Positions 40,094 through 53,049 of a stretch of DNA of 64,000 nt are shown piece by piece. This DNA is from Picochlorum sp. SENEW3 (lineage: Eukaryota): NCBI GenBank assembly GCA_034226945.1, contig CP120459.1, positions 744,001-808,000 on the forward strand, in the 5' to 3' direction. The translations under genes and the position numbers were made by a program. Numbering within the stretch: the first letter of the stretch is position 1; each line of letters starts with the position of its first letter. The notes below the pieces were generated by a model. That model had not been told where the DNA came from and did no database searches. It saw only the letters and a list, made by a program, of their open reading frames with translations.

Positions 40094-42388
40094 ATGGTGT
40101 ATTGTAAGCATTGCCGAAAGGAGACGGACGTCGATGTGGACGACGCCAAGGGAATTTCATGCTGTGTCGATTGTGGAAGCGTTCTAGAGGACGTTGCATT
40201 TTCTGTGGATGTGACATTTCAGAAGGATGCTGCTGGAGAATCTACTGTAGTAGGTCAATTTGTGAATGAAAGTGGTGTGGCGAGGGGTATCGGTCGAATT
40301 CATGGAGGTCGAGTGTATGCGTACCAAGCAGAGTCTCATGAGCGAGCGCAACAGCGTGGGAGACAGCATATAGCACACTTGGTTGATCAGTTAAAGGTGA
40401 AGCCGCGAGAGGAGAGTATAGATTCGGCGCACCGGGTGTACAAGCTTGCATTGCAAAAGGGGTTTACGAGGGGTCGAAGGACGAGTCACGTGGCTGCAGC
40501 GTGCTTGTATCTGTTATGTCGGCAGGATGATAAGCCATTTTTTTTGATTGATTTTTCAGATATACTTCAAGTGAGCGTGTTTTCCTTGGGGGCGGTGTTT
40601 CTTCAGTTGGCCAAGTTGCTGCGGTTGGAAAACCAGCCTCAGTTTACAAAGCCGGTGGATCCGTCTCTGTATATTCATAGGTTTGCGGATAAGATGGGGT
40701 ATGCTGATGATGTGCTGAAATCTGTGTCTCAGACGGCGATGCGGCTTGTGGCGTCGATGAAGCGGGATTGGATTCAGACTGGGAGGAGACCGAGTGGGGT
40801 GTGTGGGGCAGCATTGTATATTGCGACGCATTTGCATGGGGAGCCTCGAACGAAGCGGGATATTGTGAATGTAGTGCATATAGGGGAGTTTACATTGTCG
40901 AAGCGGTTGAATGAGTTTGCGACCACACCGGCAGGAGAGATGAATAAGAAGGAGTTTTTGAAGCATTCTGAGATGATGGAGAAGCAGGAGAAGATGGCTA
41001 TTGAGAATGCGCGGGGGGAAGAGGCGCCAAAGAATTTGATTGGAGGTTGTATGCATTTACCGAGTGGTGTGGAGCATTTTAGGAATGGGTTGTGTCGAGA
41101 GTGTTATTTGACATATGTTGGATGCTCTGGAGGGTATGAGGGAGCCAATCCACCGTCATTTTCAAAGAATAGGGAGCGGGAGAAGGTGAAGCAATTGCAG
41201 CTGCTTGAAGATTCTAGTACACATGGGGATGATGATGGCGATGGTGATGGTGAAGAAGGACAGGAAGAAAAGGAAAACGGTGAACAGGAAGACAATGAAG
41301 AAGAGCGTCCTCGCTTGAGGAGGAGTAGCAGGAGAGCACGGGGTGTGGAAGGCCATGCTACACTGGTGTCAGATGATGGTAAGATTGATTCTGCCACTGT
41401 TTTGGCAGCGGAACAGTGCGTGGAAGGGTTTGATGTTGCTATAGCGCATGCGGAAAAGGCGGATGCCAAGAGACGGAGAGGGGGCATGTCTACTGCAGCT
41501 GCTGTGGCTGCTGCATCTGCGTTTGCGGTGGAGGAAGCGGCTGTTGCTGTCGGAGAGTCAAGAGATATGATCATTGCTGCTCAAGGCAACTCTCTTCCAC
41601 TCTCTGTGGTTGGAGATTTTGCAACAGAGGATGGGACACAGGCTGATGCGCGGGATGATGACAGCCTTTCGGATATCAGCGATTCTGAGATTCTCATGTA
41701 TATTGCAGAAGAGGAGGAAGTTAAATGTAAGGAGGAGATATGGAATATGATGAATCAAGATTGGATGGAGAAGCAAGCGGCAAAGGGAGCTGCACAGGAG
41801 GCTGCCCTACAGGCTCAAGAAGAGCAGAGAAAGGCCATGGAACAGGCAGCTGCAGCTGGTGTACAATACAAGAGAGGTCGAGGACGACCTCTTGGGTCCA
41901 AATCAAAACCAAAAGCAATAGCAACAATGCCACCTGCAGAGACACCTCAGGAGGCTGCGATGAGAATAATAGATGATAAGAAGCTGTCCAGTAAAATTAA
42001 TTACTCTGTCTTGGCAGAGCTGTTTTCCAGTGATGCACCTGAGCAACCTGGTGATGACACAGGAAAGAAAAAGGAGGCACCGAAGGCTCGAACAGTTGCC
42101 TCAGAGAAAAAGGCGGTCAAGGGAGATGTGGCAGTGGACAAGACCAGTGCAGGACTGTCACCACGAAAGCCTAGGAAGAATGCATCAGCGATGCTGCCGC
42201 CTGGTCCTAGTAAAAGGATAAAATCAACTGGTAAAACATATCAGCGCCTAGAATCGCTGACTGGAACGCACGCATCGCCTTTGTCAGCGCTATCAAACAT
42301 TTCATCACTGAAATCAGCCAGAAAACCCATGGGTATTGGAGGCATTGGGGCCATCAGGCCAAAATCTTCTGCAAAGAAGAACACTTGA
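40094..42388 (+). CDS. BRF1: TFIIIB 90-kDa subunit BRF1
   Basis: Zn ribbon, two cyclin folds (FTRGRR, DPSLYIHRF, MKRDWIQTGRRPSG), and the C-terminal W..N..W and LSSKINY blocks. Confidence 0.95.
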   Translation: MVYCKHCRKETDVDVDDAKGISCCVDCGSVLEDVAFSVDVTFQKDAAGESTVVGQFVNESGVARGIGRIHGGRVYAYQAESHERAQQRGRQHIAHLVDQLKVKPREESIDSAHRVYKLALQKGFTRGRRTSHVAAACLYLLCRQDDKPFFLIDFSDILQVSVFSLGAVFLQLAKLLRLENQPQFTKPVDPSLYIHRFADKMGYADDVLKSVSQTAMRLVASMKRDWIQTGRRPSGVCGAALYIATHLHGEPRTKRDIVNVVHIGEFTLSKRLNEFATTPAGEMNKKEFLKHSEMMEKQEKMAIENARGEEAPKNLIGGCMHLPSGVEHFRNGLCRECYLTYVGCSGGYEGANPPSFSKNREREKVKQLQLLEDSSTHGDDDGDGDGEEGQEEKENGEQEDNEEERPRLRRSSRRARGVEGHATLVSDDGKIDSATVLAAEQCVEGFDVAIAHAEKADAKRRRGGMSTAAAVAAASAFAVEEAAVAVGESRDMIIAAQGNSLPLSVVGDFATEDGTQADARDDDSLSDISDSEILMYIAEEEEVKCKEEIWNMMNQDWMEKQAAKGAAQEAALQAQEEQRKAMEQAAAAGVQYKRGRGRPLGSKSKPKAIATMPPAETPQEAAMRIIDDKKLSSKINYSVLAELFSSDAPEQPGDDTGKKKEAPKARTVASEKKAVKGDVAVDKTSAGLSPRKPRKNASAMLPPGPSKRIKSTGKTYQRLESLTGTHASPLSALSNISSLKSARKPMGIGGIGAIRPKSSAKKNT

Positions 42389-42446
42389 AATGCATGCATA
42401 GAGATTTATTTAAATATTGTTTCGCAATGTAGAAAATCATATTGTC

Positions 42447-45400
42447 TTAGACATCAACATCCGAGTCACTCTCCGAGAAATATGGAAAGTCGTCAAATTC
42501 GTCATCCACGTCCTCATCGTCTTCATCCTCTTCCTCACTGCCTGCCGGCTGGAATCCTTCGAATCCGTACTGATACCCATCTTCTACCTTCAGGTAAGGG
42601 TCTCCAAAGTAGTTTTGAGTTGGGTTTGGTGCATCTGGTGCGTCTAGAACGCCTCCCATCGATGCAGAGAATTCATCTGCAGAGTACATGGATGCTTGCT
42701 CGCCCGCATCTCCATCAAAGGCATCTTCTCCTCTGCTCATTGCTTCCTTTAGCAATTCCCTCATAACCTCAACGTGTGACATAGGAGGAGATTGTTGTGC
42801 TGCTTGACGCATCAAAAGGCCATTTGGACTAATATCAGGATGAATGTCAACTTCCGTGATGACTATTTCACTAGTTTCTGCGTTGATGAGAAGAGAAATC
42901 TCTGCAGCGCCACTAAGGCCCAATCTATCTGATACGAGCTGCAGTCTCAGCATTGTATCACTCGTCATCTCTTCAGATAAAATAGATGGCGGAGGTGGGG
43001 TCAAGTCAAAGAAAGGCCCGGCCAGCTCGTCATCTGTGACTTGGACAACACTCGTGCTCAATCCAAGGCAACGCATTGTTCCTGCTCCACCAAGAAGACA
43101 CCCTTTGGCCTCGAGCCAATTATCTTGTGTTGGCCAGCAAATTGGACCATATAATTTGTCCTGGATTGTTGTTTGATCGTGAGAGCCACCTCGTAAAATT
43201 TGTACAGGCTCTGCCTCAAGGAAAGGCTCTATGACAAACTGCGTTGGTGGGGGAAGTGGCATACGAATGTCTACCGCCTCAGCAGTTGTATCATCAGCAT
43301 CGATTGTTTCCATCCAATTTTGTACAGCATGGTAGTACAGCATCAGATCTTTTCCACTCTTCATTCTCAACATTCCTAGTCCATAGTCAGTTGCAGGACG
43401 AATGACCATCATCTTGTCATCCCATGCACCGAATAACCTGTTGAAGAATTCGTTCGCAGAGTCTTCAGTCTGACAAGTTGCCCTGAGTTCTAAGGCTGAA
43501 ATCGAATGGGCTGGAGGAGCCGAGATAATTGATCCATCATAGTTGACTGCATCTGTCAAGGAGCGGAGTAGCTCTGGGCGGTCCAGACAGAGTCCAGCAG
43601 CTACATTAGACGGGCCAGTGTATGGTACGCCAACTTCATCCATCAATTCTTGGATAGGTCCATATGCTGAGGGATGGCCAGGCAAGACCATGAGAATCAC
43701 GGCACATTTCTCGGAGGCTGCTACGACCCAATCCTTGAGGGACAAATACCGAGGAACTCCTGGATTCCCTTCAACTGCGAGAGAACCACCCCATGGAGCT
43801 CTATATCCTTCAATAGAGATTTCAGTATCCTGAAAAGAGGATTTCGTGGCATCAAGGATTTGCTCTATTTTGTGAAGATCATCTCCAGGCTTTCTTGAAA
43901 CCGTGGTGAGTCTAGAAGAGTCGGCTATACGATCAATGGAGCAGCGCATGTCTTCCACGGAATCCCTCACAATATTGGACCCGGCCAATCTCCATACACC
44001 TCTTCCATTCAGATCTTGTGGGGGCAATGGATCAGGGTGCTTGATGCGAGCTGGGTGAAGATAGGGCATCTCAGCAAATAGGAAATCGTCAGTTGCACCA
44101 CTCTTAAGCACATCTTCTCTGAGAGAGACAAGCTTTTTTAATCGCTCGTCATTTCTCAGGCCTGCATTTGGTGGATCAAGCATGAAAGCTTCCAAGAGCA
44201 AATCTGGTGCACCTTGCAGTGCCCTCATTGCTGCAGCAGCTGTGTTCAAGGATTCCTTTCTCTGGTGCCCTTCACCCCCACAGAGAATCCAGACCCTTTG
44301 ACGACATGGATGGAGACCAGGGAATTGTTGCGACAAGATACTAGACATATCTGAGAATGTCTCCTGATCAGAACTCATTTCATCCTTCTCATTCAGAGTC
44401 GCGACGGTTTGTTCCAATGCAGCCTCAATCTCATCCTCTCTAGGAGCACTGGTTGCATCATCATCTACTATTGTCTCAGGCTCGTCCAGGTGTGCAAATA
44501 TTGGCTCTTTGTCCCATATTTCGACGATGTCCTTAATCGCCTCGAAAGATATTTCCTCATCTGAATCGCTGAGTTCTGTGCAAGAGATGCCAACCCAATC
44601 CTCATCAGCATCCTTGACCTCATCCTGAGATATAAGCTGCCCTTCCAGTTCTGGAAGATCGAGGCGTCCTGCAACCATGGATACAAGCTGTCTTGGAAGC
44701 CAGTTCCAAGAAAGTCCAGAAGCAAACAGCTGCTGAGCTAGTGTACCCAATTTACTTTCAAACGATGGGATCAGACCAATATCCCCAATGACTACTCTGT
44801 ATGATGTTCCATCATCACTGAGAAACGTGTTGACCTTGTCCACATCTAAAGATTCTGCATCATTAAGTCCAGAGTACTTGCCTTGAGGGGGCTCTGGTAG
44901 AATAGGACGAGCTTTGCTTTGCACCATCTCTTTCTGTATATCTACTCGTGTCCTGTCATCAATTGGCACGCCAAAAACTTCACCATATCTGACCTTTGGT
45001 TCAGCTTTATAAAAATCAACCACAGTCATGGACCCTAGATCTTTGTCAACAAGGTTTCGTTCAGCTGTGGCTCGCTCTTTTAATGCATCTTGCTCCTTTT
45101 GTAATAGCGAGGCCATCGACTCGACCTTGAGGCTGGAGTAATTCTCATCATCAATTTCTGCAACAACCTTTTCGCCCGACTCAAAAGCTACCAGGGCATT
45201 TTTATCATTTTCCATTTCAGTTAGATCAATTTCAGGGCAAACGATAAGCGTTATTCTTGCAAAATCCTTGAGACCCATATCTTTGAAAATACGCACGGCT
45301 GAGAGCCTTGCATGGTTTGACAACTCTACCGGAATGGACCTTGGTGGTGTATGGTGGCGAATCTTCCTACTATCAGATAAATCACCATCTTGACTTTCAG

Positions 45401-47864
45401 CATGAGGTGGCACTAGTATATCCTCTGTTTTAAAGCTGATGACTCTTTCCAGCATGCCCACATCATACTCACCATTCTGATACACAACCTTGGACACTTC
45501 AATATCTGAAATGCTGATGCAATCATTGATATCAAAATAATCTATCTCTGTTGGTACAAGAGCTACAGGACCTTCTTTTGTATCCACAACATGCACCTGG
45601 AGATGGACGGCGTCCTTATAAATTGGCTCAATCCGAATGACTACATCCTTGAACCCATCTGTGTCTGTTTTCAGTGCATCAATCACTTCTATGCATGCAT
45701 GTAGCCCTCGGCAAACAATTGACAAAAGTTTCTCCTGCCCTTGAATTACCTCAATGCTGAATCTTCCAATGATTGAATCATTGGGGCCCTCATGGATCCA
45801 TTTGGCGAGGAGATCTTCAGCTTCAGATGCATGATCATGTTCCAGCTCTAAAACTGGCATTGATTGGTAGCCTTTGGACATTGTCTTCTCTAGGAGATCT
45901 ATTCTACCAGCTTTCTTCGAGACAAACTCTGGATTGAAAGCATTTAGTGCACTATGTTGTGCAAGAGAAGGATTCGACGCAGAGGGTGTTCCTAATGGAA
46001 GAAGAATCCTGCTGCTTCCTGCAATTTCACTCATTGCCTGCATACTTCTATTTCTCTGGCCAGGCAATAGTGCATCAAGCGCAGCTGCATCATATCCATA
46101 TAGTTCCTCCCATGATAATGCAGTGTATCCACAAGCTGCATCATCATTGGATCCAGTTCTAATTGGATAGAGCACCGTTACACTCACTCCTTGCCTCAAA
46201 AGTGTAGCTGCATGGTATGGCTCACTTCGAGGTCCCTCTCCCATTTTATTCACGACCGCAATGGTAAATTCATATGCTGTACCGGGCTTTAATCCCTTGA
46301 CAACAATATCTTGCGACAAGCCTGTAGCAACAACCTCTTCTCCAGCTTCCTCTGCTGGCTTTGCATACACCTTGAACAAGGTTCCCAGTGGTGCCATCGG
46401 AGCTGAGACTGTTGCAACAACGCCATTCACAGCAGGGGTCAGATACAATATCTCAATCATATCAGTTGGACGCTCTTCGCAATCAAAAGAATCCAAATCC
46501 TCCTCCAAATTCTCCTGACCATCTGAGGAGGTGAAAGGCATTAGTGTCCCCCAAATCTGATCAGATTGCAAGTCTGGCAGAATTTCTCTTGCCGACTGGA
46601 TCGATTTCTCCCTTTCTTCAACCGTCAATCCATCACAAATCAAGGTCACATCCAACGTTGGGTCAATCGTTTGTGTCACTGCATCTTCACCTTCAGGTCC
46701 CTGCTCATCAGATTGGGTACCACTCTCTTCCCATTCTGAATCATTTGGCATCATTGCTGCATGAATCCACTCCTCGACCAGCGCATTTGCAAGCCTCGAA
46801 TCAGAATCTTCTCCAACCGAAAAGCTCGCAAGTCCACGTGCAGCTAGCGCTTCATACGTTTCCTCATCATCCAACTTGGACACAGCAGCCTCAGCATACT
46901 TGACCAACCTTCCCAATCCCGCATGAGCATCTATCACATCTCTTCTCAATACATTTGTCAGCCGCTCCACAAGAACCTCAGAAGTCCCATACACTGGCAA
47001 ATTCCTTGCCAGCAACGCAGCTCGAAGATATGGCAAATCCATCTCACTCACAGATGCCATTGTTTTCTGTGCCTCCCGCAAATCAGCAGCCATTGCTCTA
47101 TTAGGGGGCCTTGGTGGCACATCAATCGTTGCCTCCTCCAATTCTCTACGAGCTGCCTCTTCCGCCTTATCAGCGAGTATCTTTCTCTCCCTTTGGGCAT
47201 CATATTCCACCAAACGAGCCAACAGTTCTGCCTTGTTGCCCTTGGTAGGAAGATTCCTCTTCTGACACAACTGAATCAGTCGCTTTGTATTCAACTTATC
47301 ATATGCTGATGTCGTTGGAACAACATCCTGAGATATGGCTCCATCTACCACAAGCATGGCAAATGCCAAACCAATAGCATCATCCTTATCATCAGGCATC
47401 ACCACCTCCCTCTGCTTATAAAACTTTGCAAGTTCTCCCTCACTCATCGCTGTCGGCAGTTTCACCCTCCTTCCATACGATCGTTTATCCCAAACTGGCT
47501 TCCCTAACATTTCTCTCACCTTCCGTATCAACTTTGCCCTCAAATTATACTTCATATCCTTACCTCCCAGTCCATTTAGTTTGCACATAGACTTGAGATC
47601 ATGATACTCGACATCATTCTCACACAACCGCATATGAAAGTCATGCAATTGATCCATCGTCATATCCTCTAATATGAAGATCCTTCTACCATCATCAACA
47701 CTTCCTCCAGACATGCCACCTTCTCCCCCTAAAGCAGCAGCACTGCCAACATGCACCCTTGCACCAGGGCGACCCTTGGTACCAGGCAATGACGCCCCAA
47801 CTCCCCTTCCACATAACCTCACCATGTGCGATCGTGACCCGAGAGACCTGCAGACAAACGACAT
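42447..47864 (-). CDS. Large SAP-domain + FN3 protein with degenerate tandem D-Ala-D-Ala ligase (ATP-grasp) domains and putative plastid transit peptide
   Basis: SAP repeats (LIQLCQKRNLPTKGNKAELLARL; LRAALLARNLPVYGTSEVLVERL) and FN3 (GLKPGTAYEFTIAVVN..GEG). DDL-like segments: VTLICDG..EREKSIQSAR, VWILCGG..RKESLNT and IQELMDEVGVPYTGP. Confidence 0.8.
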   Translation of the reverse strand: MSFVCRSLGSRSHMVRLCGRGVGASLPGTKGRPGARVHVGSAAALGGEGGMSGGSVDDGRRIFILEDMTMDQLHDFHMRLCENDVEYHDLKSMCKLNGLGGKDMKYNLRAKLIRKVREMLGKPVWDKRSYGRRVKLPTAMSEGELAKFYKQREVVMPDDKDDAIGLAFAMLVVDGAISQDVVPTTSAYDKLNTKRLIQLCQKRNLPTKGNKAELLARLVEYDAQRERKILADKAEEAARRELEEATIDVPPRPPNRAMAADLREAQKTMASVSEMDLPYLRAALLARNLPVYGTSEVLVERLTNVLRRDVIDAHAGLGRLVKYAEAAVSKLDDEETYEALAARGLASFSVGEDSDSRLANALVEEWIHAAMMPNDSEWEESGTQSDEQGPEGEDAVTQTIDPTLDVTLICDGLTVEEREKSIQSAREILPDLQSDQIWGTLMPFTSSDGQENLEEDLDSFDCEERPTDMIEILYLTPAVNGVVATVSAPMAPLGTLFKVYAKPAEEAGEEVVATGLSQDIVVKGLKPGTAYEFTIAVVNKMGEGPRSEPYHAATLLRQGVSVTVLYPIRTGSNDDAACGYTALSWEELYGYDAAALDALLPGQRNRSMQAMSEIAGSSRILLPLGTPSASNPSLAQHSALNAFNPEFVSKKAGRIDLLEKTMSKGYQSMPVLELEHDHASEAEDLLAKWIHEGPNDSIIGRFSIEVIQGQEKLLSIVCRGLHACIEVIDALKTDTDGFKDVVIRIEPIYKDAVHLQVHVVDTKEGPVALVPTEIDYFDINDCISISDIEVSKVVYQNGEYDVGMLERVISFKTEDILVPPHAESQDGDLSDSRKIRHHTPPRSIPVELSNHARLSAVRIFKDMGLKDFARITLIVCPEIDLTEMENDKNALVAFESGEKVVAEIDDENYSSLKVESMASLLQKEQDALKERATAERNLVDKDLGSMTVVDFYKAEPKVRYGEVFGVPIDDRTRVDIQKEMVQSKARPILPEPPQGKYSGLNDAESLDVDKVNTFLSDDGTSYRVVIGDIGLIPSFESKLGTLAQQLFASGLSWNWLPRQLVSMVAGRLDLPELEGQLISQDEVKDADEDWVGISCTELSDSDEEISFEAIKDIVEIWDKEPIFAHLDEPETIVDDDATSAPREDEIEAALEQTVATLNEKDEMSSDQETFSDMSSILSQQFPGLHPCRQRVWILCGGEGHQRKESLNTAAAAMRALQGAPDLLLEAFMLDPPNAGLRNDERLKKLVSLREDVLKSGATDDFLFAEMPYLHPARIKHPDPLPPQDLNGRGVWRLAGSNIVRDSVEDMRCSIDRIADSSRLTTVSRKPGDDLHKIEQILDATKSSFQDTEISIEGYRAPWGGSLAVEGNPGVPRYLSLKDWVVAASEKCAVILMVLPGHPSAYGPIQELMDEVGVPYTGPSNVAAGLCLDRPELLRSLTDAVNYDGSIISAPPAHSISALELRATCQTEDSANEFFNRLFGAWDDKMMVIRPATDYGLGMLRMKSGKDLMLYYHAVQNWMETIDADDTTAEAVDIRMPLPPPTQFVIEPFLEAEPVQILRGGSHDQTTIQDKLYGPICWPTQDNWLEAKGCLLGGAGTMRCLGLSTSVVQVTDDELAGPFFDLTPPPPSILSEEMTSDTMLRLQLVSDRLGLSGAAEISLLINAETSEIVITEVDIHPDISPNGLLMRQAAQQSPPMSHVEVMRELLKEAMSRGEDAFDGDAGEQASMYSADEFSASMGGVLDAPDAPNPTQNYFGDPYLKVEDGYQYGFEGFQPAGSEEEDEDDEDVDDEFDDFPYFSESDSDVDV

Positions 47865-48597
47865 GATGATACAGTGGTGCCTTGTCCCCCATACACACAG
47901 CACAACGAGACAGTCCAAATAGCCCAAGCAACTCACCTGTACCGATATCCACTCGTCAAACGACGTAATGTCATAGAAGACATCAGAGAATGAACACCGA
48001 TGCGTCCATTGCTACCCAAGGCACTCGTACGCCAAGGCACCACTGTTGGCGCAGCATGACCACCACGCAGCAACAACATCCTCTAAATCACCCGTTTCTA
48101 CCACCAGATCTCTACTAAATACGTCAATAATCGGTTTCAGTTATCAAAAATACGAAAATATCTATATATCCAGAGTAAGACCGTCGTTGAATGCAGCTCT
48201 CATAGTCATGCAATACAATACAGTCGATTTTCGATATTATCAGATGACAGGAGCACTATAATGAAAGACGAATGATTCACAGTTGAAATTTGGTATCCAT
48301 GACTGCCCATAGGTTCAGATAGCAATCCTCCGATTGAGTGGAGGTTTTATATGAAATGTTCTAAGTAAGAAACTTTAGGTGTTTCCAGATCCTTTTGGAA
48401 ATCATCATCATCAAGCATGAAAATTCTCCAATCAATGAATTATATAGTATTAGCAACTGTAACTATTCTACTCTATACTTGGAAAATCAGGCCATTGTGA
48501 GGGCAGACCGAGAGTAGAGGTTTTTCAAGAAGAGAGCAAGAATCTTCGATACTCTGTAGGTCCTATACGGGCGTAGAATATTTACTATATTGATAGG

Positions 48598-49079: not shown

Positions 49080-50369
49080 TTATGAAGGCATGTGCTGCTG
49101 TGGTGCTTTCCATCGCCATATTTTGACCTTGCCAAATTCATCCCCAGAAATCATGAGGTTTCCTTGAGGGAATCCTGCCAGGGCGCGTGCATTCTGAACA
49201 TGACTGAGGGACCCTCTGTCCACGAATGTCGGGAGTTCAAAGAGTCTGATTGTATTTTCTGAATTATAGGAAACCATCAACACTGCTTTCCCTTCCAAAT
49301 CAGCGACACCACACAGGCATAGAACACCATTCAACTGCGGGCCTCTGCTTGAATATGATCTGCCACGTCCTCTTCCCTGCTGCTGTGATTCTTCTTGTTC
49401 TGGATATACATAGATAGAGGAGGGATTCACCACATTGCCTGTTGCAGGATCTGCAGGCTCCCAAATCTTAATCTCTCCATCTAAACTTCCACTCATCAGA
49501 TGTCCTTCCCAAATTAACAAGGACATGATGGCTGGGTGCTGAGACTTCCGATGCGCTTTTATCAATGTTTGTTTGACAACACCTGCTTCCAAATCCCACA
49601 CTTTAATGGTTCCTGCAGTATCCCCGGAAAACAGAAAGGGACCCGAGGTGCACATGCATGATACTGATGCGCGATGCCCATCTTGCCCAGCAGCCTCAAG
49701 CACAGCTGCGCATTCAAATGCTCCCGATGCAGGATTCATCTTCCACACGCGAATACTTTTATCTTGACCGCCACTAAACAGCATGCCATTCGCCGCCGCC
49801 AAGGCAGACACCTGCCCAACATGCCCATCTAGAATAATATCTTGCATGGTACTCATATTCCAAATTCTAATCTGCCCTTGCCCTCGAACAGTTTTCAAAC
49901 CAACAAACAAAAAGCCTCCTTCTATTAATATACTGTCCACTTCTCCACCCACTTGCACAGTACTCTGACACTCTCCACTCTGACAATTCCACACCCTCAC
50001 AGTCTGGTCATGACTTCCTGTAAACAACTGTCCGCTCCCCGGATCCAAGCACATACACGTCACCTTTTTCCGATGTCCTTTCAAGTCAGATACAAATTCA
50101 ACATCCTGTGGAAGCACATGAGACCTATTCCCAGAAGTATATCCACCTCTCCCCCGCCTCCCTCGTCCACCCCAATATCCACCCCCTCGCCCGCCAGATG
50201 CATTTTGCTGATAATAATTTGGATTAAATTGATTCCCACTATATCCACCCCTATTTGATGACGAATACCCTCCACCTCGCCCTCTGTTGGACGAGTAATA
50301 TCCACCTCCACCTCTGTTCGACGTTGAATACCCTCGTCCTCGACCTTCTCCGGTATCCATATGCACCAT
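49080..50369 (-). CDS. WD40-repeat protein with an RGG-rich N-terminus (ZFWD-like)
   Basis: Multiple GH..LFSG..D..I.VW repeats, with RGG/YGG repeats at the N-terminus. Confidence 0.9.
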   Translation of the reverse strand: MVHMDTGEGRGRGYSTSNRGGGGYYSSNRGRGGGYSSSNRGGYSGNQFNPNYYQQNASGGRGGGYWGGRGRRGRGGYTSGNRSHVLPQDVEFVSDLKGHRKKVTCMCLDPGSGQLFTGSHDQTVRVWNCQSGECQSTVQVGGEVDSILIEGGFLFVGLKTVRGQGQIRIWNMSTMQDIILDGHVGQVSALAAANGMLFSGGQDKSIRVWKMNPASGAFECAAVLEAAGQDGHRASVSCMCTSGPFLFSGDTAGTIKVWDLEAGVVKQTLIKAHRKSQHPAIMSLLIWEGHLMSGSLDGEIKIWEPADPATGNVVNPSSIYVYPEQEESQQQGRGRGRSYSSRGPQLNGVLCLCGVADLEGKAVLMVSYNSENTIRLFELPTFVDRGSLSHVQNARALAGFPQGNLMISGDEFGKVKIWRWKAPQQHMPS

Positions 50370-51138
50370 TGTGTTGATATAAATACTATGTCACTGTAGA
50401 AATACCTATTGCGCAATGTGTCGTTGTCTAATAGGTCGTATGCAGCGAAATTCCATGAACTCGATTAGAAATGACTGCGACGATCATCGGCGTGTATCAC
50501 AGAGGACACATAACAAGCTCTATGAATTAGTAAAATATGGTTCAATTATGCAATCAAATTGGAGAGTATGAATGAATGGGAGCAGATACTCCGTATTTTA
50601 GAATTTCATTGCGATGGGTATCCACACAATGGGATCGCATGCATTTGATAAAGGCGTTTTGAATACGATTTCTACAACATAAAGGGTAAAAGAATTTCAA
50701 ATTGTTGCCACTGTGCGCTTCTTTTGTGGTTCGAGAGGACTCTCATTCCATTGGCGTGGGTCAAGCACATGCACAAGCGTTTCTGCCTTATTGGAGAGTT
50801 TTACCCATTAAATAGTACATTTGGTTGGAATAATAATTTTCAGTATTATGTGTGGTATGTATTTGTGTTGGAATTGGAGTCGTAGGTGTCGGAGTCACGT
50901 TGAGCAGCTTTTTGAGTTGAGCGAGCTCTGATGGGTGTATATGGCGTTGATTGTGAATATTGTCCATGTGTAGTGGATGCGTGTTTGTTTGCTGAGTTGC
51001 TGTGAGTGCATGGTGCATCCAAGAATAGGAGGACACGAAGGGCTTTGTTTGTGTGGTGAAGAATTGAGCGCGAAAGTACAACGATACGGCTAGAAGTGAC
51101 GAATTGACATTGTATAAAAGAGAATAGTGTGTGTTGAG

Positions 51139-53049
51139 ATGGATGCGGTCGCCTTGGGAGGTCCTTGCTCCGCTCGGGTGCACAGGGTGCCACTGGTGCA
51201 GCGAGTGAGAGTGCAGAATGCCGTGGTCTGCCGTCCAGGCATGCGACGAGGGTTACCAAGGATGCCTTTGGTGCAGTGTAATAGTTCACCGGAGCGACAT
51301 GAGAAGGAGAGGCAGATGATTCCAGAGCCACAGGCTCATGGGTTTGGAGAGGCTGTTGAACACCAGGTGAAAAAATTGGACGGTTTGTGGGGGCAGTTGG
51401 TGCCGATGACGTTTTTATTCTTTATGATGGCGTTTGTCAATACAATAATTGATAGTTTGAAGGATTCTTTAGTGATCACAGCAGTAGGAGGAGGGACAGA
51501 GGTGCTACCATATTTGTCCTTGTATGGTGTTTTGCCCAGCTCTGTGCTGTTTTTAGTTGTGTATTCGTGGGCTACTCGGAAAATGTCCCGCGAAAAGATT
51601 TTCAATGTGACCATGGGTGGATTTTTAATGTTTTATGCGTCGTTTGCTTTGGTCTATCCTCACCATGAAGCTCTACATGTATCATCACTTGCGGATTCTT
51701 TGCAGCAGGTGCTTCCAGCAGGGTTTTCTGGTCTTGTTGGAATGGTTAGGAATTGGCTTTTCACAGCATTTTACTGTGTTTCAGAGCTATGGGGAGATGT
51801 CGTGCTGAGCTTGTTGTTTTGGGGACTGGCGAATGAGACAACGTCCATTGAGGATGCACCTTTGTTGTATCCCCTGTTTGGTATCGGTGCAAACATTGCT
51901 CAAACCTGTGCTGGGCGATCCTTGCGTTTGATATCTCAAGTGAGCGATTCAGTTCTAACGTATACACAGCAGGTTCAGCTGTCTGTTACTGTGTGCGTCC
52001 TCATTGGTGTTGTCATTGCTGCAACGCATACCATGATTACGAGGACATTTGTGAAGAATCCCAGAGGCTCAGCTGCTGATAGACTGCGTCATTCCAAAAT
52101 AGGGCATAGTAGCAATGGAAGTGTGCAACATAATGCAGATGTTGTGATAGATAATGAATCCAGCGTGCCAGGATTGAATTACTGCAATATTCAGGATCGG
52201 TCTGAGACCGAGGCAGTAGGTGAGCCATCCACGAGTGCCGAGGTGCAAGAGGCGAAGAAGGAAGCGATGGGCCTGAAAGAGGCTTGGTTGTTCCTCGTTA
52301 AATCACCCCAGATTAGGTGTCTAGCAATTATGGCGCTTGCTCAGGGTCTGACAAATCGCATTTTAGAAGTCTCGTGGAAGCACTATTTGCATGTTTTGCA
52401 CCCCAGTCCTGTAGCATACGCAGCATTCTTGGGTGACACGGCGATGTGGACAGGTGCCGCAACAGGATTGCTGATGATCTTATCTCCACTTCTATTTGAT
52501 CTTATGGGCTGGAGGGGTGTTGCGTCGGCTACGCCGAATATCATGCTGTTGGGAGGCATACCATTTTTCTGTTGTTGCATTATTTTTTCCTTCTTCTCAT
52601 CAACCGCGCTGGGATCTGGTCTAATATCATTACGAGGTTTGGTTCTCACAGGAGCATTGTTGCAAGTCTTCTCTCGTGGATCAAAGTTCAGTCTTTTCAA
52701 ACCAGCTGAAGAAATGGTGTATATTGGACTGGATGATGAAAGTAGAACAAAGGGCAAGGCTGCTATTGACGTTGTTGGTGCCCAGTCTGGGAAATCTGTT
52801 GGATCAGTTTTACAACAAATGATGCTCATTATTACTGGAGGTTCTGTTTCCGGAATCATTCCTGTGTTAGCGATATTCTATGTCACCATGTTGTACCAAT
52901 GGAAGGCGTCAGTGAATGACTTGGCAGAGCATGCAGATCCCAGCCATGTACACAGGGCATCTGTCATGGCTTCCCTAGATGACGAGGACGGCGATTCCTC
53001 ATTGCCTGTAGATAACATTTCAAAACTTACATCTGGTGCAAATGCATAG
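51139..53049 (+). CDS. ATP/ADP nucleotide transporter (TLC/NTT family), probably plastid
   Basis: LKDSLV, SELWG..LFWGLANE and KFSLFKPAEEMVYI..RTKGKAAIDV motifs; transit-peptide-like N-terminus. Confidence 0.93.
   Translation: MDAVALGGPCSARVHRVPLVQRVRVQNAVVCRPGMRRGLPRMPLVQCNSSPERHEKERQMIPEPQAHGFGEAVEHQVKKLDGLWGQLVPMTFLFFMMAFVNTIIDSLKDSLVITAVGGGTEVLPYLSLYGVLPSSVLFLVVYSWATRKMSREKIFNVTMGGFLMFYASFALVYPHHEALHVSSLADSLQQVLPAGFSGLVGMVRNWLFTAFYCVSELWGDVVLSLLFWGLANETTSIEDAPLLYPLFGIGANIAQTCAGRSLRLISQVSDSVLTYTQQVQLSVTVCVLIGVVIAATHTMITRTFVKNPRGSAADRLRHSKIGHSSNGSVQHNADVVIDNESSVPGLNYCNIQDRSETEAVGEPSTSAEVQEAKKEAMGLKEAWLFLVKSPQIRCLAIMALAQGLTNRILEVSWKHYLHVLHPSPVAYAAFLGDTAMWTGAATGLLMILSPLLFDLMGWRGVASATPNIMLLGGIPFFCCCIIFSFFSSTALGSGLISLRGLVLTGALLQVFSRGSKFSLFKPAEEMVYIGLDDESRTKGKAAIDVVGAQSGKSVGSVLQQMMLIITGGSVSGIIPVLAIFYVTMLYQWKASVNDLAEHADPSHVHRASVMASLDDEDGDSSLPVDNISKLTSGANA

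Follow-up and report, generated by a model that had tools for sequence, protein, structure and literature searches.

A predicted pseudoenzyme derived from the green-lineage tandem D-Ala-D-Ala ligase and fused to SAP motifs in the green alga Picochlorum

Introduction

The closest described relatives of the gene reported here are the tandem D-Ala-D-Ala ligases (DDLs) of streptophytes, such as PpDdl of Physcomitrium patens and its counterparts in Arabidopsis, Brassica and Coffea, chains of ∼ 950 residues that hold two collinear DDL units. According to the available text of PMC12681378, knock-out of PpDdl gives rise to macrochloroplasts and Arabidopsis Ddl mutants have no chloroplast defect. We describe a gene on the minus strand (start codon at 48,079, stop codon at 42,447–42,449) of a 64,000-nucleotide stretch of DNA, referred to below as the window (contig CP120459.1, positions 744,001 to 808,000), from Picochlorum sp. 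SENEW3; the stretch comes from the nuclear genome of a Picochlorum green alga. The encoded protein likewise carries two DDL-derived units, collinear and in a single chain, and has, in common with the streptophyte proteins, a helical insert early in the second unit. Unlike them, it begins with SAP motifs, contains a fibronectin type III (FN3) domain and lacks the catalytic set, which the streptophyte enzymes keep in both halves.

A matching architecture, with SAP at the N-terminus followed by two DDL units in ∼ 1600–1900 residues, is found in Myrmecia bisecta (KAK9819932.1) and in a protein of Tetraselmis astigmatica (MMETSP). In contrast to the Picochlorum protein, these two match PF01820/PF07478 at 1e-25 to 1e-35, have no FN3 domain and retain H63, E68, K97, K144, K215, R255, D257, E270 (or D) and N272 in both halves (Escherichia coli DdlB numbering). 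The bacterial ligases DdlB, DdlA and VanA have their fold in common with the second half of the Picochlorum protein (half 2), but identity is only 10–14%, half 2 is longer (536 residues versus ∼ 310–360) and their catalytic residues have been lost in it.

Angiosperm MurE (PAP11) provides a comparison of another kind. It is likewise an ATP-dependent ligase of a peptidoglycan pathway that is incomplete, and it is likewise associated with SAP: within the PEP (plastid-encoded RNA polymerase) complex it touches the SAP motif of PAP1 and helps to position it at the DNA entrance channel (PMC12681378, in its available text, citing Vergara-Cruces 2024). MurE belongs to the Mur ligase family and not to the ATP-grasp enzymes, however, and the SAP motif resides in a separate protein (PAP1/pTAC3), whereas it is fused in the Picochlorum protein. 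The pairing of MurE with PAP1/pTAC3, which had been put forward as a precedent for the present gene, holds for land plants, as far as the available text of PMC12681378 goes, and is an analogy only where the alga is concerned.

DDL and MurE persist in chlorophytes that are without most of the peptidoglycan pathway (van Baren 2016, PMC4815162, available part). In Table S5 of that paper, Chlamydomonas reinhardtii has entries for Ddl (Cre08.g359500;Cre04.g233302), MurE (Cre12.g519900) and MurG (Cre12.g527950) with the rest given as ‘NF’, and Coccomyxa has Ddl and MurE only. Full toolkits are reported for few chlorophytes only in the accessible part of a preprint (MacLeod 2023). We treat Cre08.g359500 and Cre04.g233302 as no more than candidate members of the family described below. 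A search of the full-text literature found no printed description of a SAP–DDL fusion or of its decay, no paper that joins SAP domain, D-alanine and Chlamydomonas, and none that names either of these two genes; the Picochlorum genome paper (PMC6141220) has a single mention of peptidoglycan, which is irrelevant here, as is PMC6704402. Members of the family are labelled in the databases only as ‘hypothetical’, ‘SAP domain-containing’ or ‘D-alanine--D-alanine ligase’.

Results

Predicted fold and homology of the two halves

Residues are numbered throughout from the ATG at 47,864 (protein P0001); the number in the spliced protein, described below, is higher by 42. Half 2 (residues 1186–1715, 42,720–44,309 on the minus strand) is predicted to be a well-folded ATP-grasp body without the catalytic set. 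The AlphaFold2 model of residues 1185–1720 has a predicted local distance difference test score (pLDDT) of 88.6 and a predicted TM-score (pTM) of 0.86. When it was compared with the PDB using Foldseek, all 32 matches listed (ranks 1–48) were DDL or VanA-type ligases, with E-values of 2e-16 to 7e-15 and TM-scores (TMt) of 0.70–0.81. Half 1 (residues ∼ 401–1065, 44,670–46,664, minus strand) is strongly decayed and contains the FN3 domain and a further insert of ∼ 135 residues (881–1015). Its model (residues 395–1010; pLDDT 82.2, pTM 0.59) also has DDLs as the top rows of the Foldseek search (E 3e-6), and DDL chains align with it over model residues 7–484 (Z 10.5–11.4, 232–274 residues aligned). 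The last strand and helix of half 1 (1016–1065) were placed by eye and from the profile alignment of P0004 only.

The FN3 domain (residues 463–557, 46,194–46,478, minus strand) is matched by Pfam PF00041 at residues 497–551 (28.8 bits versus a cutoff of 25). FN3 structures align with model residues 69–163, which correspond to protein residues 463–557; the best Z-score is 11.7 (VIA), with an rmsd of 2.2 Å over 93 residues (3n1g_D). Since DDL chains align on both sides of it, the FN3 domain interrupts DDL unit 1 within its N-terminal subdomain. The initial annotation had proposed two DDL-like halves with an FN3 domain inserted in the first. A domain parse of predicted structures, run as a check, agrees with that arrangement and finds structural similarity to DDL in both halves; in these models both ATP-grasp bodies keep the DDL fold.

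Sequence comparison leads to the same family. BLASTP aligns residues 1284–1687 with the second of the two units in a plant DDL (Brassica, P0019) at E 9e-34 and 25% identity over 420 columns, and residues 832–871 with the first unit of the same protein at E 5e-6. A profile seeded from the direct matches of E. coli DdlB, from which the query protein was excluded, finds residues 833–871, 1370–1506 and 1621–1706 with a full-sequence E-value of 1.7e-28, a figure that applies to a set of 181 sequences only; the SAP–DDL family itself enters in the later iterations, which are hence circular. Curated DDL scores are not reached (PF01820, 22.9 bits versus 34.6; TIGR01205, 27.3 versus 245.65), and PF07478 gives no report for the protein at E ≤ 1; the orthologues P0004 and P0005 barely pass it (26.8 and 24.6 versus 24). 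Sequence searches of the PDB return FN3 matches plus DDLs that are marginal only (3r23, E 0.2; 7u56, E 0.0043 with the family profile). Taken together, descent of the protein from a green-lineage tandem DDL is supported. The database model of the Brassica oleracea protein P0019 (1893 residues) has a Raptor N-terminal/HEAT protein and an entire tandem DDL in one chain and is almost certainly a merged gene model rather than a real fusion.

Loss of catalytic residues

Residues were read by aligning the halves to the DdlB-seeded profile, with the positions checked on the sequence of E. coli DdlB itself. We take E15, H63, E68, K97, K144, S150, K215, Y216, R255, D257, E270 and N272 to be the residues with catalytic or substrate-binding roles, and of these twelve half 2 retains E270 alone. 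E15, H63, E68 and D69 are replaced by Q1201, P1395, A1400 and Y1401. K97 and K144 have both become arginine (R1429 and R1489), and S150 and S151 are replaced by Y1494 and G1495. K215, Y216, R255, D257, N272, G276 and S281 correspond to D1612, E1613, E1655, S1657, D1673, D1677 and G1682. Six of the 23 positions compared are retained (G64, G70, P145, E187, E270 and L282); half 2 of the Coffea enzyme retains 17. In half 1, for which the alignment is weak and leaves E270 and N272 unmapped, the H63–G70 loop is absent, K144, K215 and D257 are replaced by E705, G827 and T872, and only R255 (R870) and the equivalent of E15 (E417) are kept. The eroded motifs that had been read from the sequence initially, PGHPSAYG (1395–1402), RPATDYG (1489–1495), RIT (870–872), EIS (1655–1657) and EVD (1671–1673), are every one present as quoted. 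The full set is kept in both halves of the Brassica and Coffea enzymes, of three unnamed tandem DDLs of ∼ 800 residues, of P0038 (see below) and of the Myrmecia and Tetraselmis proteins. These alignments support catalytic decay in both halves of the Picochlorum protein.

The changes are not uniform within the Picochlorum/Nannochloris clade (9 rows). Both lysines are arginine throughout (K97, 9/9; K144, 9/9), E187 is kept in 9/9 and E270 in 8/9, and the position of N272 holds aspartate or asparagine in 9/9. R255 and D257 are kept in none of the nine and K215 in one, and their replacements vary. We read this pattern as free drift of the residues of the chemistry, whereas some of the nucleotide pocket became fixed anew. 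Half 2 may thus be non-catalytic yet still bind a nucleotide or another anionic or phosphorylated ligand.

The same residues bear on the question of whether the protein is still an enzyme, be it an ATP-grasp ligase that acts on another substrate or a protein with kinase- or ATPase-like activity, in which half 2 is active and SAP only positions it. Such a role would fit the well-folded model of half 2 and the conservation of its core (67–75% identity across Picochlorum species), as well as the clade-wide conservation of changed pocket residues (P1395, R1429, R1489-P1490, G1495, E1585, E1671 and D1677) and the existence of SAP-fused relatives with a full catalytic set. However, the D-Ala site formed by H63 and E68 is gone, and the residues for phosphoryl transfer and Mg2+ (R255, D257 and K215) differ between species, which argues for released constraint and not for a new, fixed chemistry. 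We therefore regard an active enzyme as improbable.

The N-terminal region and the acidic tail

The most conserved module of the protein lies at residues 60–310 (46,935–47,687, minus strand), where identity by sub-region is 82–99% among seven Picochlorum-type orthologues and 88–99% in the SAP region, and both SAP motifs fall within it. Judged by this comparison the N-terminal SAP module is the part of the protein under the strongest constraint. SAP domain 1 (residues 188–222, 47,199–47,303, minus strand) scores 47.4 bits with PF02037, for which the cutoff is 23.9 (E 1.4e-12 for the segment alone, 5.3e-14 for the whole protein). The putative SAP domain 2 (residues ∼ 280–305, 46,950–47,027, minus strand) is sub-threshold, with 19.2 bits against the same cutoff and an E-value of 9.6e-4; on the whole protein Pfam counts two SAP stretches. 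The initial annotation had allowed for two to four SAP motifs. Two of them stand, one above the cutoff and one below it, and the other SAP-like stretches (60–125 and 325–370) have no Pfam match. A search of the ESM Atlas with residues 55–400 gave SAP leads only, at a score of 0.77, which is below the trust level.

The module is preceded by a stretch of very different character. Over its first 89 residues the spliced protein contains no aspartate or glutamate, 12 arginines, 11 serines and 16 glycines, and among Picochlorum species whose proteins are 54–64% identical overall this is the least conserved part (10–25% identity). The portion of it encoded in exon 2 (residues 6–59, 47,688–47,847, minus strand) is poorly conserved. 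In both composition and rate of evolution the first ∼ 89 residues look like an organellar presequence, and the presequence-like character of the start, which the initial annotation had likened to a transit peptide, is supported for the spliced protein.

The opposite end of the chain is acidic. The last 40 residues (42,450–42,569, minus strand) comprise 11 aspartates and 8 glutamates and no lysine or arginine. The C-terminal tail as a whole (residues 1716–1805, 42,450–42,720) consists of a conserved aromatic/Gly motif followed by the Asp/Glu run and is 56–60% identical among Picochlorum species; no family match was found for it.

SAP domains and acidic C-terminal tails are frequent in chromatin proteins, and the present protein has both. 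It could accordingly be a chromatin or scaffold protein, located in the nucleus or dual-targeted, that has abandoned the plastid. We consider this distinctly unlikely: an acid-free, fast-evolving extension of ∼ 89 residues, rich in Arg, Ser and Gly, is typical of organellar presequences, and the ancestors of the protein are plastid enzymes.

Gene structure, transcription and selection

The gene is spliced and transcribed. It had initially been described as intronless, with its start at 47,864, and on the minus strand a frame is indeed open without interruption from 47,936 to 42,447, giving 1805 residues from that ATG (P0001). However, the ATG at 47,864 lies inside an intron of 89 nt (47,848–47,936, minus strand) with GT..AG ends (donor GTGAGT, acceptor CAG ending at 47,848), and the real start is at 48,079. 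Exon 1 (47,937–48,079) holds the start codon and the first 47 2/3 codons, all of the presequence, and exon 2 (42,447–47,847) extends to and includes the stop codon; an in-frame stop codon is present two codons upstream of the ATG at 48,079. The spliced protein has 1847 residues, 1814 of which are the same as in the annotated protein of Picochlorum sp. BPE23 (hypothetical protein M9434_000175, 98% identical). In a scan of acceptors over a 60-nt range every other acceptor gave at most 182 positional matches to the BPE23 protein out of 1847.

Exactly the 89 nt are missing from contigs of X1 (depth 120.6, side 255) and of X7 (depth 2.9, side 63), sequencing runs that belong to two studies; the ends are GT..AG on the strand of the gene, and the X1 contig extends to 48,230, beyond exon 1. 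That these runs are RNA is a guess, and a relative whose DNA is missing the 89 nt would formally be an alternative to splicing; the splice signals and the annotated BPE23 orthologue make it unlikely. Run X5, which is probably DNA, has no contig over 47,850–47,974 and run X11 gives three short pieces, so that both are uninformative on the intron.

Comparison with contigs of related strains over 46,900–48,079 gave 21 coding differences, 18 of them synonymous and 3 non-synonymous. The three non-synonymous differences are all in the presequence, and all 14 differences within residues 60–285 are synonymous. Full-length orthologues with 54–98% identity are present in many Picochlorum-type records. 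Seven of them (54–64% overall) were compared by region: besides the half-2 core, with the values given above, the FN3 domain is 59–69% and half 1 33–48% identical. These data support the view that the gene is kept by purifying selection and is not a pseudogene. The eroded catalytic motifs and the DDL model scores under the curated thresholds are what would be expected from a decaying pseudogene or an annotation artefact, but this reading is contradicted by the frame open over 1847 codons, by the intron spliced in contigs of two studies, by the excess of synonymous differences, by the full-length orthologues and by the confident AlphaFold2 models, and we give it practically no weight. In our judgement it is very probable that the locus encodes a dead, DDL-derived SAP fusion under selection.

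A wider SAP–DDL family in Chlorophyta

When half 2 was searched against 1.84 billion representative sequences, 269 matches were obtained at E ≤ 0.001, and 30 of these were scanned with Pfam. Nineteen of the 30 are long proteins (1357–2898 residues), and 18 of the 19, with the exception of P0028, have N-terminal SAP motifs followed by DDL-derived units. The Picochlorum protein has the family pattern of N-terminal SAP and then two collinear DDL-derived units within a single chain of ∼ 1400–2900 residues. Going by class placements that we assume from general taxonomy, the members are distributed over the Trebouxiophyceae (Myrmecia bisecta, Chlorella sp. A99 and Nannochloris), the Chlorodendrophyceae (Tetraselmis), the Ulvophyceae (Ostreobium and Bryopsis), the Chlorophyceae (Volvox, Chlamydomonas incerta, Edaphochlamys and Chlamydomonas sp. 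UWO241) and the Pedinophyceae (one pedinophyte).

The family is graded in its state of preservation. The Myrmecia and Tetraselmis proteins have two SAP motifs, strong DDL scores and the full catalytic set in both halves. SAP is accompanied by a weak DDL match or by none in Volvox, C. incerta, Edaphochlamys, UWO241, Chlorella A99, the pedinophyte, Ostreobium and Bryopsis. The members from Bryopsidales are partly decayed, and those from the Chlorellales/Picochlorum group, the Chlorophyceae and the pedinophyte are decayed. The DDLs of streptophytes (Klebsormidium, Chlorokybus, Physcomitrium and seed plants) have ∼ 800–1000 residues and are without SAP. Of 39 aligned rows, 16 have the FN3 domain, all of them from the Picochlorum/Nannochloris clade, and canonical DDLs are without it; at the same site the Myrmecia protein has an insert of 85 residues with no similarity to FN3.

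The existence of intact SAP-fused members means that the SAP tether arose before catalysis was lost and can coexist with an active enzyme. The fusion alone therefore cannot show that an enzyme has turned into a nucleoid protein. The initial annotation had argued from the SAP fusion for just such a turn, and that argument does not hold, since the combination of SAP with tandem DDL is widespread and is intact in Myrmecia and Tetraselmis.

A gene tree, which the initial annotation had suggested as a check, was computed by a quick method from 45 rows (37 second halves, seven intact first halves and E. coli DdlB; decayed first halves were not included). The tree contains numerous long branches and came with warnings, and it was not used to count decay events. 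First and second halves fall into separate clades (support 98 and 99 by the quick method), so the tandem arrangement is old. The Picochlorum protein is placed in a clade of nine rows (98) and, with Chlorella A99, in one of 12 rows (99). The decayed forms cluster together on long branches.

Short proteins were searched with two queries. The decayed half 2 gave 14 matches, all of which are fragments or split models of the SAP–DDL family. With the intact half 2 of Myrmecia the best 120 of 1543 matches are streptophyte DDLs or unnamed and include no named chlorophyte or Picochlorum protein; most of these records are nameless, which makes this weak evidence, and we make no claim that a second DDL is absent.

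Some proteins met in these searches have features of their own. P0058, P0060, P0076 and P0083 are tandem DDLs of ∼ 790–800 residues that have no N-terminal extension and whose two halves both keep the full catalytic set. In the quick tree the second halves nest within those of streptophytes (support 99), and these proteins may bear on the origin of the plant tandem DDL. P0038 (1180 residues, 18 cluster members, ENA/Logan records) is an intact tandem DDL with a weak match to Rho_N, which is SAP-like, at residues 42–72 (E 0.00099). On the example of this protein, the SAP-like front end may reach beyond the named chlorophyte classes.

Neighbouring genes

The neighbours of the SAP–DDL gene are ordinary eukaryotic genes, encoding a BRF1/TFIIB protein (40,094–42,388, plus strand), a WD40 protein (49,080–50,369, minus strand) and a TLC ATP/ADP transporter (51,127–53,049, plus strand). 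The transporter reading frame has 640 codons and matches PF03219 at E 1.1e-117; the gene is presumably that of a plastid nucleotide transporter. The BRF1-like gene and the SAP–DDL gene are convergent. Only 58 bp (42,389–42,446) separate their stop codons, so that their 3′ untranslated regions either overlap or are very short.

Discussion

The Picochlorum protein combines a constrained SAP module with two ligase bodies that appear to be catalytically dead. The most economical function, in our view, is that of an organelle-targeted, DDL-derived pseudoenzyme that serves as a scaffold tethered to nucleic acid in the plastid, for which we see about an even chance. The long, basic, acid-free presequence would target the protein to an organelle, and the plastid, in which its DDL ancestors work, is the simplest candidate. 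There the SAP module would tether it to plastid DNA or RNA, and the two dead ligase bodies together with the FN3 domain and the acidic tail would form a folded platform for partners. The tether would have been present while the enzyme was active, and once peptidoglycan became dispensable in the lineage only the catalytic residues would have been freed from selection. Half 2 could still bind a nucleotide or phosphorylated ligand, given that the two phosphate lysines are fixed as arginine and that E187, E270 and N272 (as Asp) are kept.

Several observations weigh against this account. The mapping of residues in half 1 is insecure. Arginine at both ATP-phosphate positions, together with the retained E187 and E270, leaves room for some ligand chemistry. 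The intact SAP-fused members indicate that an ordinary enzyme can also carry a SAP tether. The clustering of the decayed forms in the quick tree may be due to long-branch attraction or to an old paralogue, and decay after the loss of peptidoglycan is thus not established. Targeting is read from amino acid composition, by which plastid and mitochondrion are indistinguishable, and SAP proteins are mostly nuclear.

The protein might alternatively be a legacy factor of plastid division or of the envelope, in which the dead DDL contacts the retained MurE homologue and MurG in stromal bodies and SAP provides a link to nucleoids for their segregation. The persistence of DDL- and MurE-like genes in chlorophytes without the full pathway (van Baren 2016, PMC4815162, available part) would be in keeping with this. 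According to the accessible text of bioRxiv 2022.05.31.493820, the MurE homologue of C. reinhardtii, Cre12.g519900 (CPP2), assembles into stromal puncta in the chloroplast, and these exchange with the stroma as fast as the nucleoid puncta of HLP1. However, the same text describes the CPP2 puncta as a structure separate from nucleoids, and we consider a legacy of this kind possible but unlikely.

A more far-reaching version of the plastid scaffold can be formulated. SAP might have tied DDL to plastid nucleic acid early in chlorophytes and so coupled the nucleoid to the peptidoglycan or division apparatus; lineages without peptidoglycan (among them Picochlorum/Chlorella and Chlamydomonas/Volvox) would then keep the dead scaffold to organise nucleoids or transcription, possibly together with the punctate MurE homologue. 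This is speculative and we think it quite unlikely. If true, it would constitute an independent parallel, fused in cis, to the arrangement of MurE (PAP11) and the SAP motif of PAP1 in land plants.

What we describe is a pseudoenzyme offshoot of the green-lineage DDL, and this affects how the presence of the gene is interpreted. Surveys score DDL as present in chlorophytes that are missing most of the pathway (van Baren 2016, PMC4815162; MacLeod 2023; both in their available parts). In Picochlorum, Chlorella sp. A99, Volvox and Chlamydomonas-type algae the DDL homologues are SAP-fused and without the catalytic set, so a ‘retained DDL’ cannot be read there as retained synthesis of D-Ala-D-Ala. 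The family offers a graded natural series, from the intact SAP–DDLs of Myrmecia and Tetraselmis through the partly decayed proteins of Bryopsidales to the fully decayed protein of Picochlorum. Both Picochlorum and Chlamydomonas are transformable. With this series one can ask what role a peptidoglycan enzyme takes on once the wall has gone, and for what reason it had been joined to a nucleic-acid-binding module beforehand.

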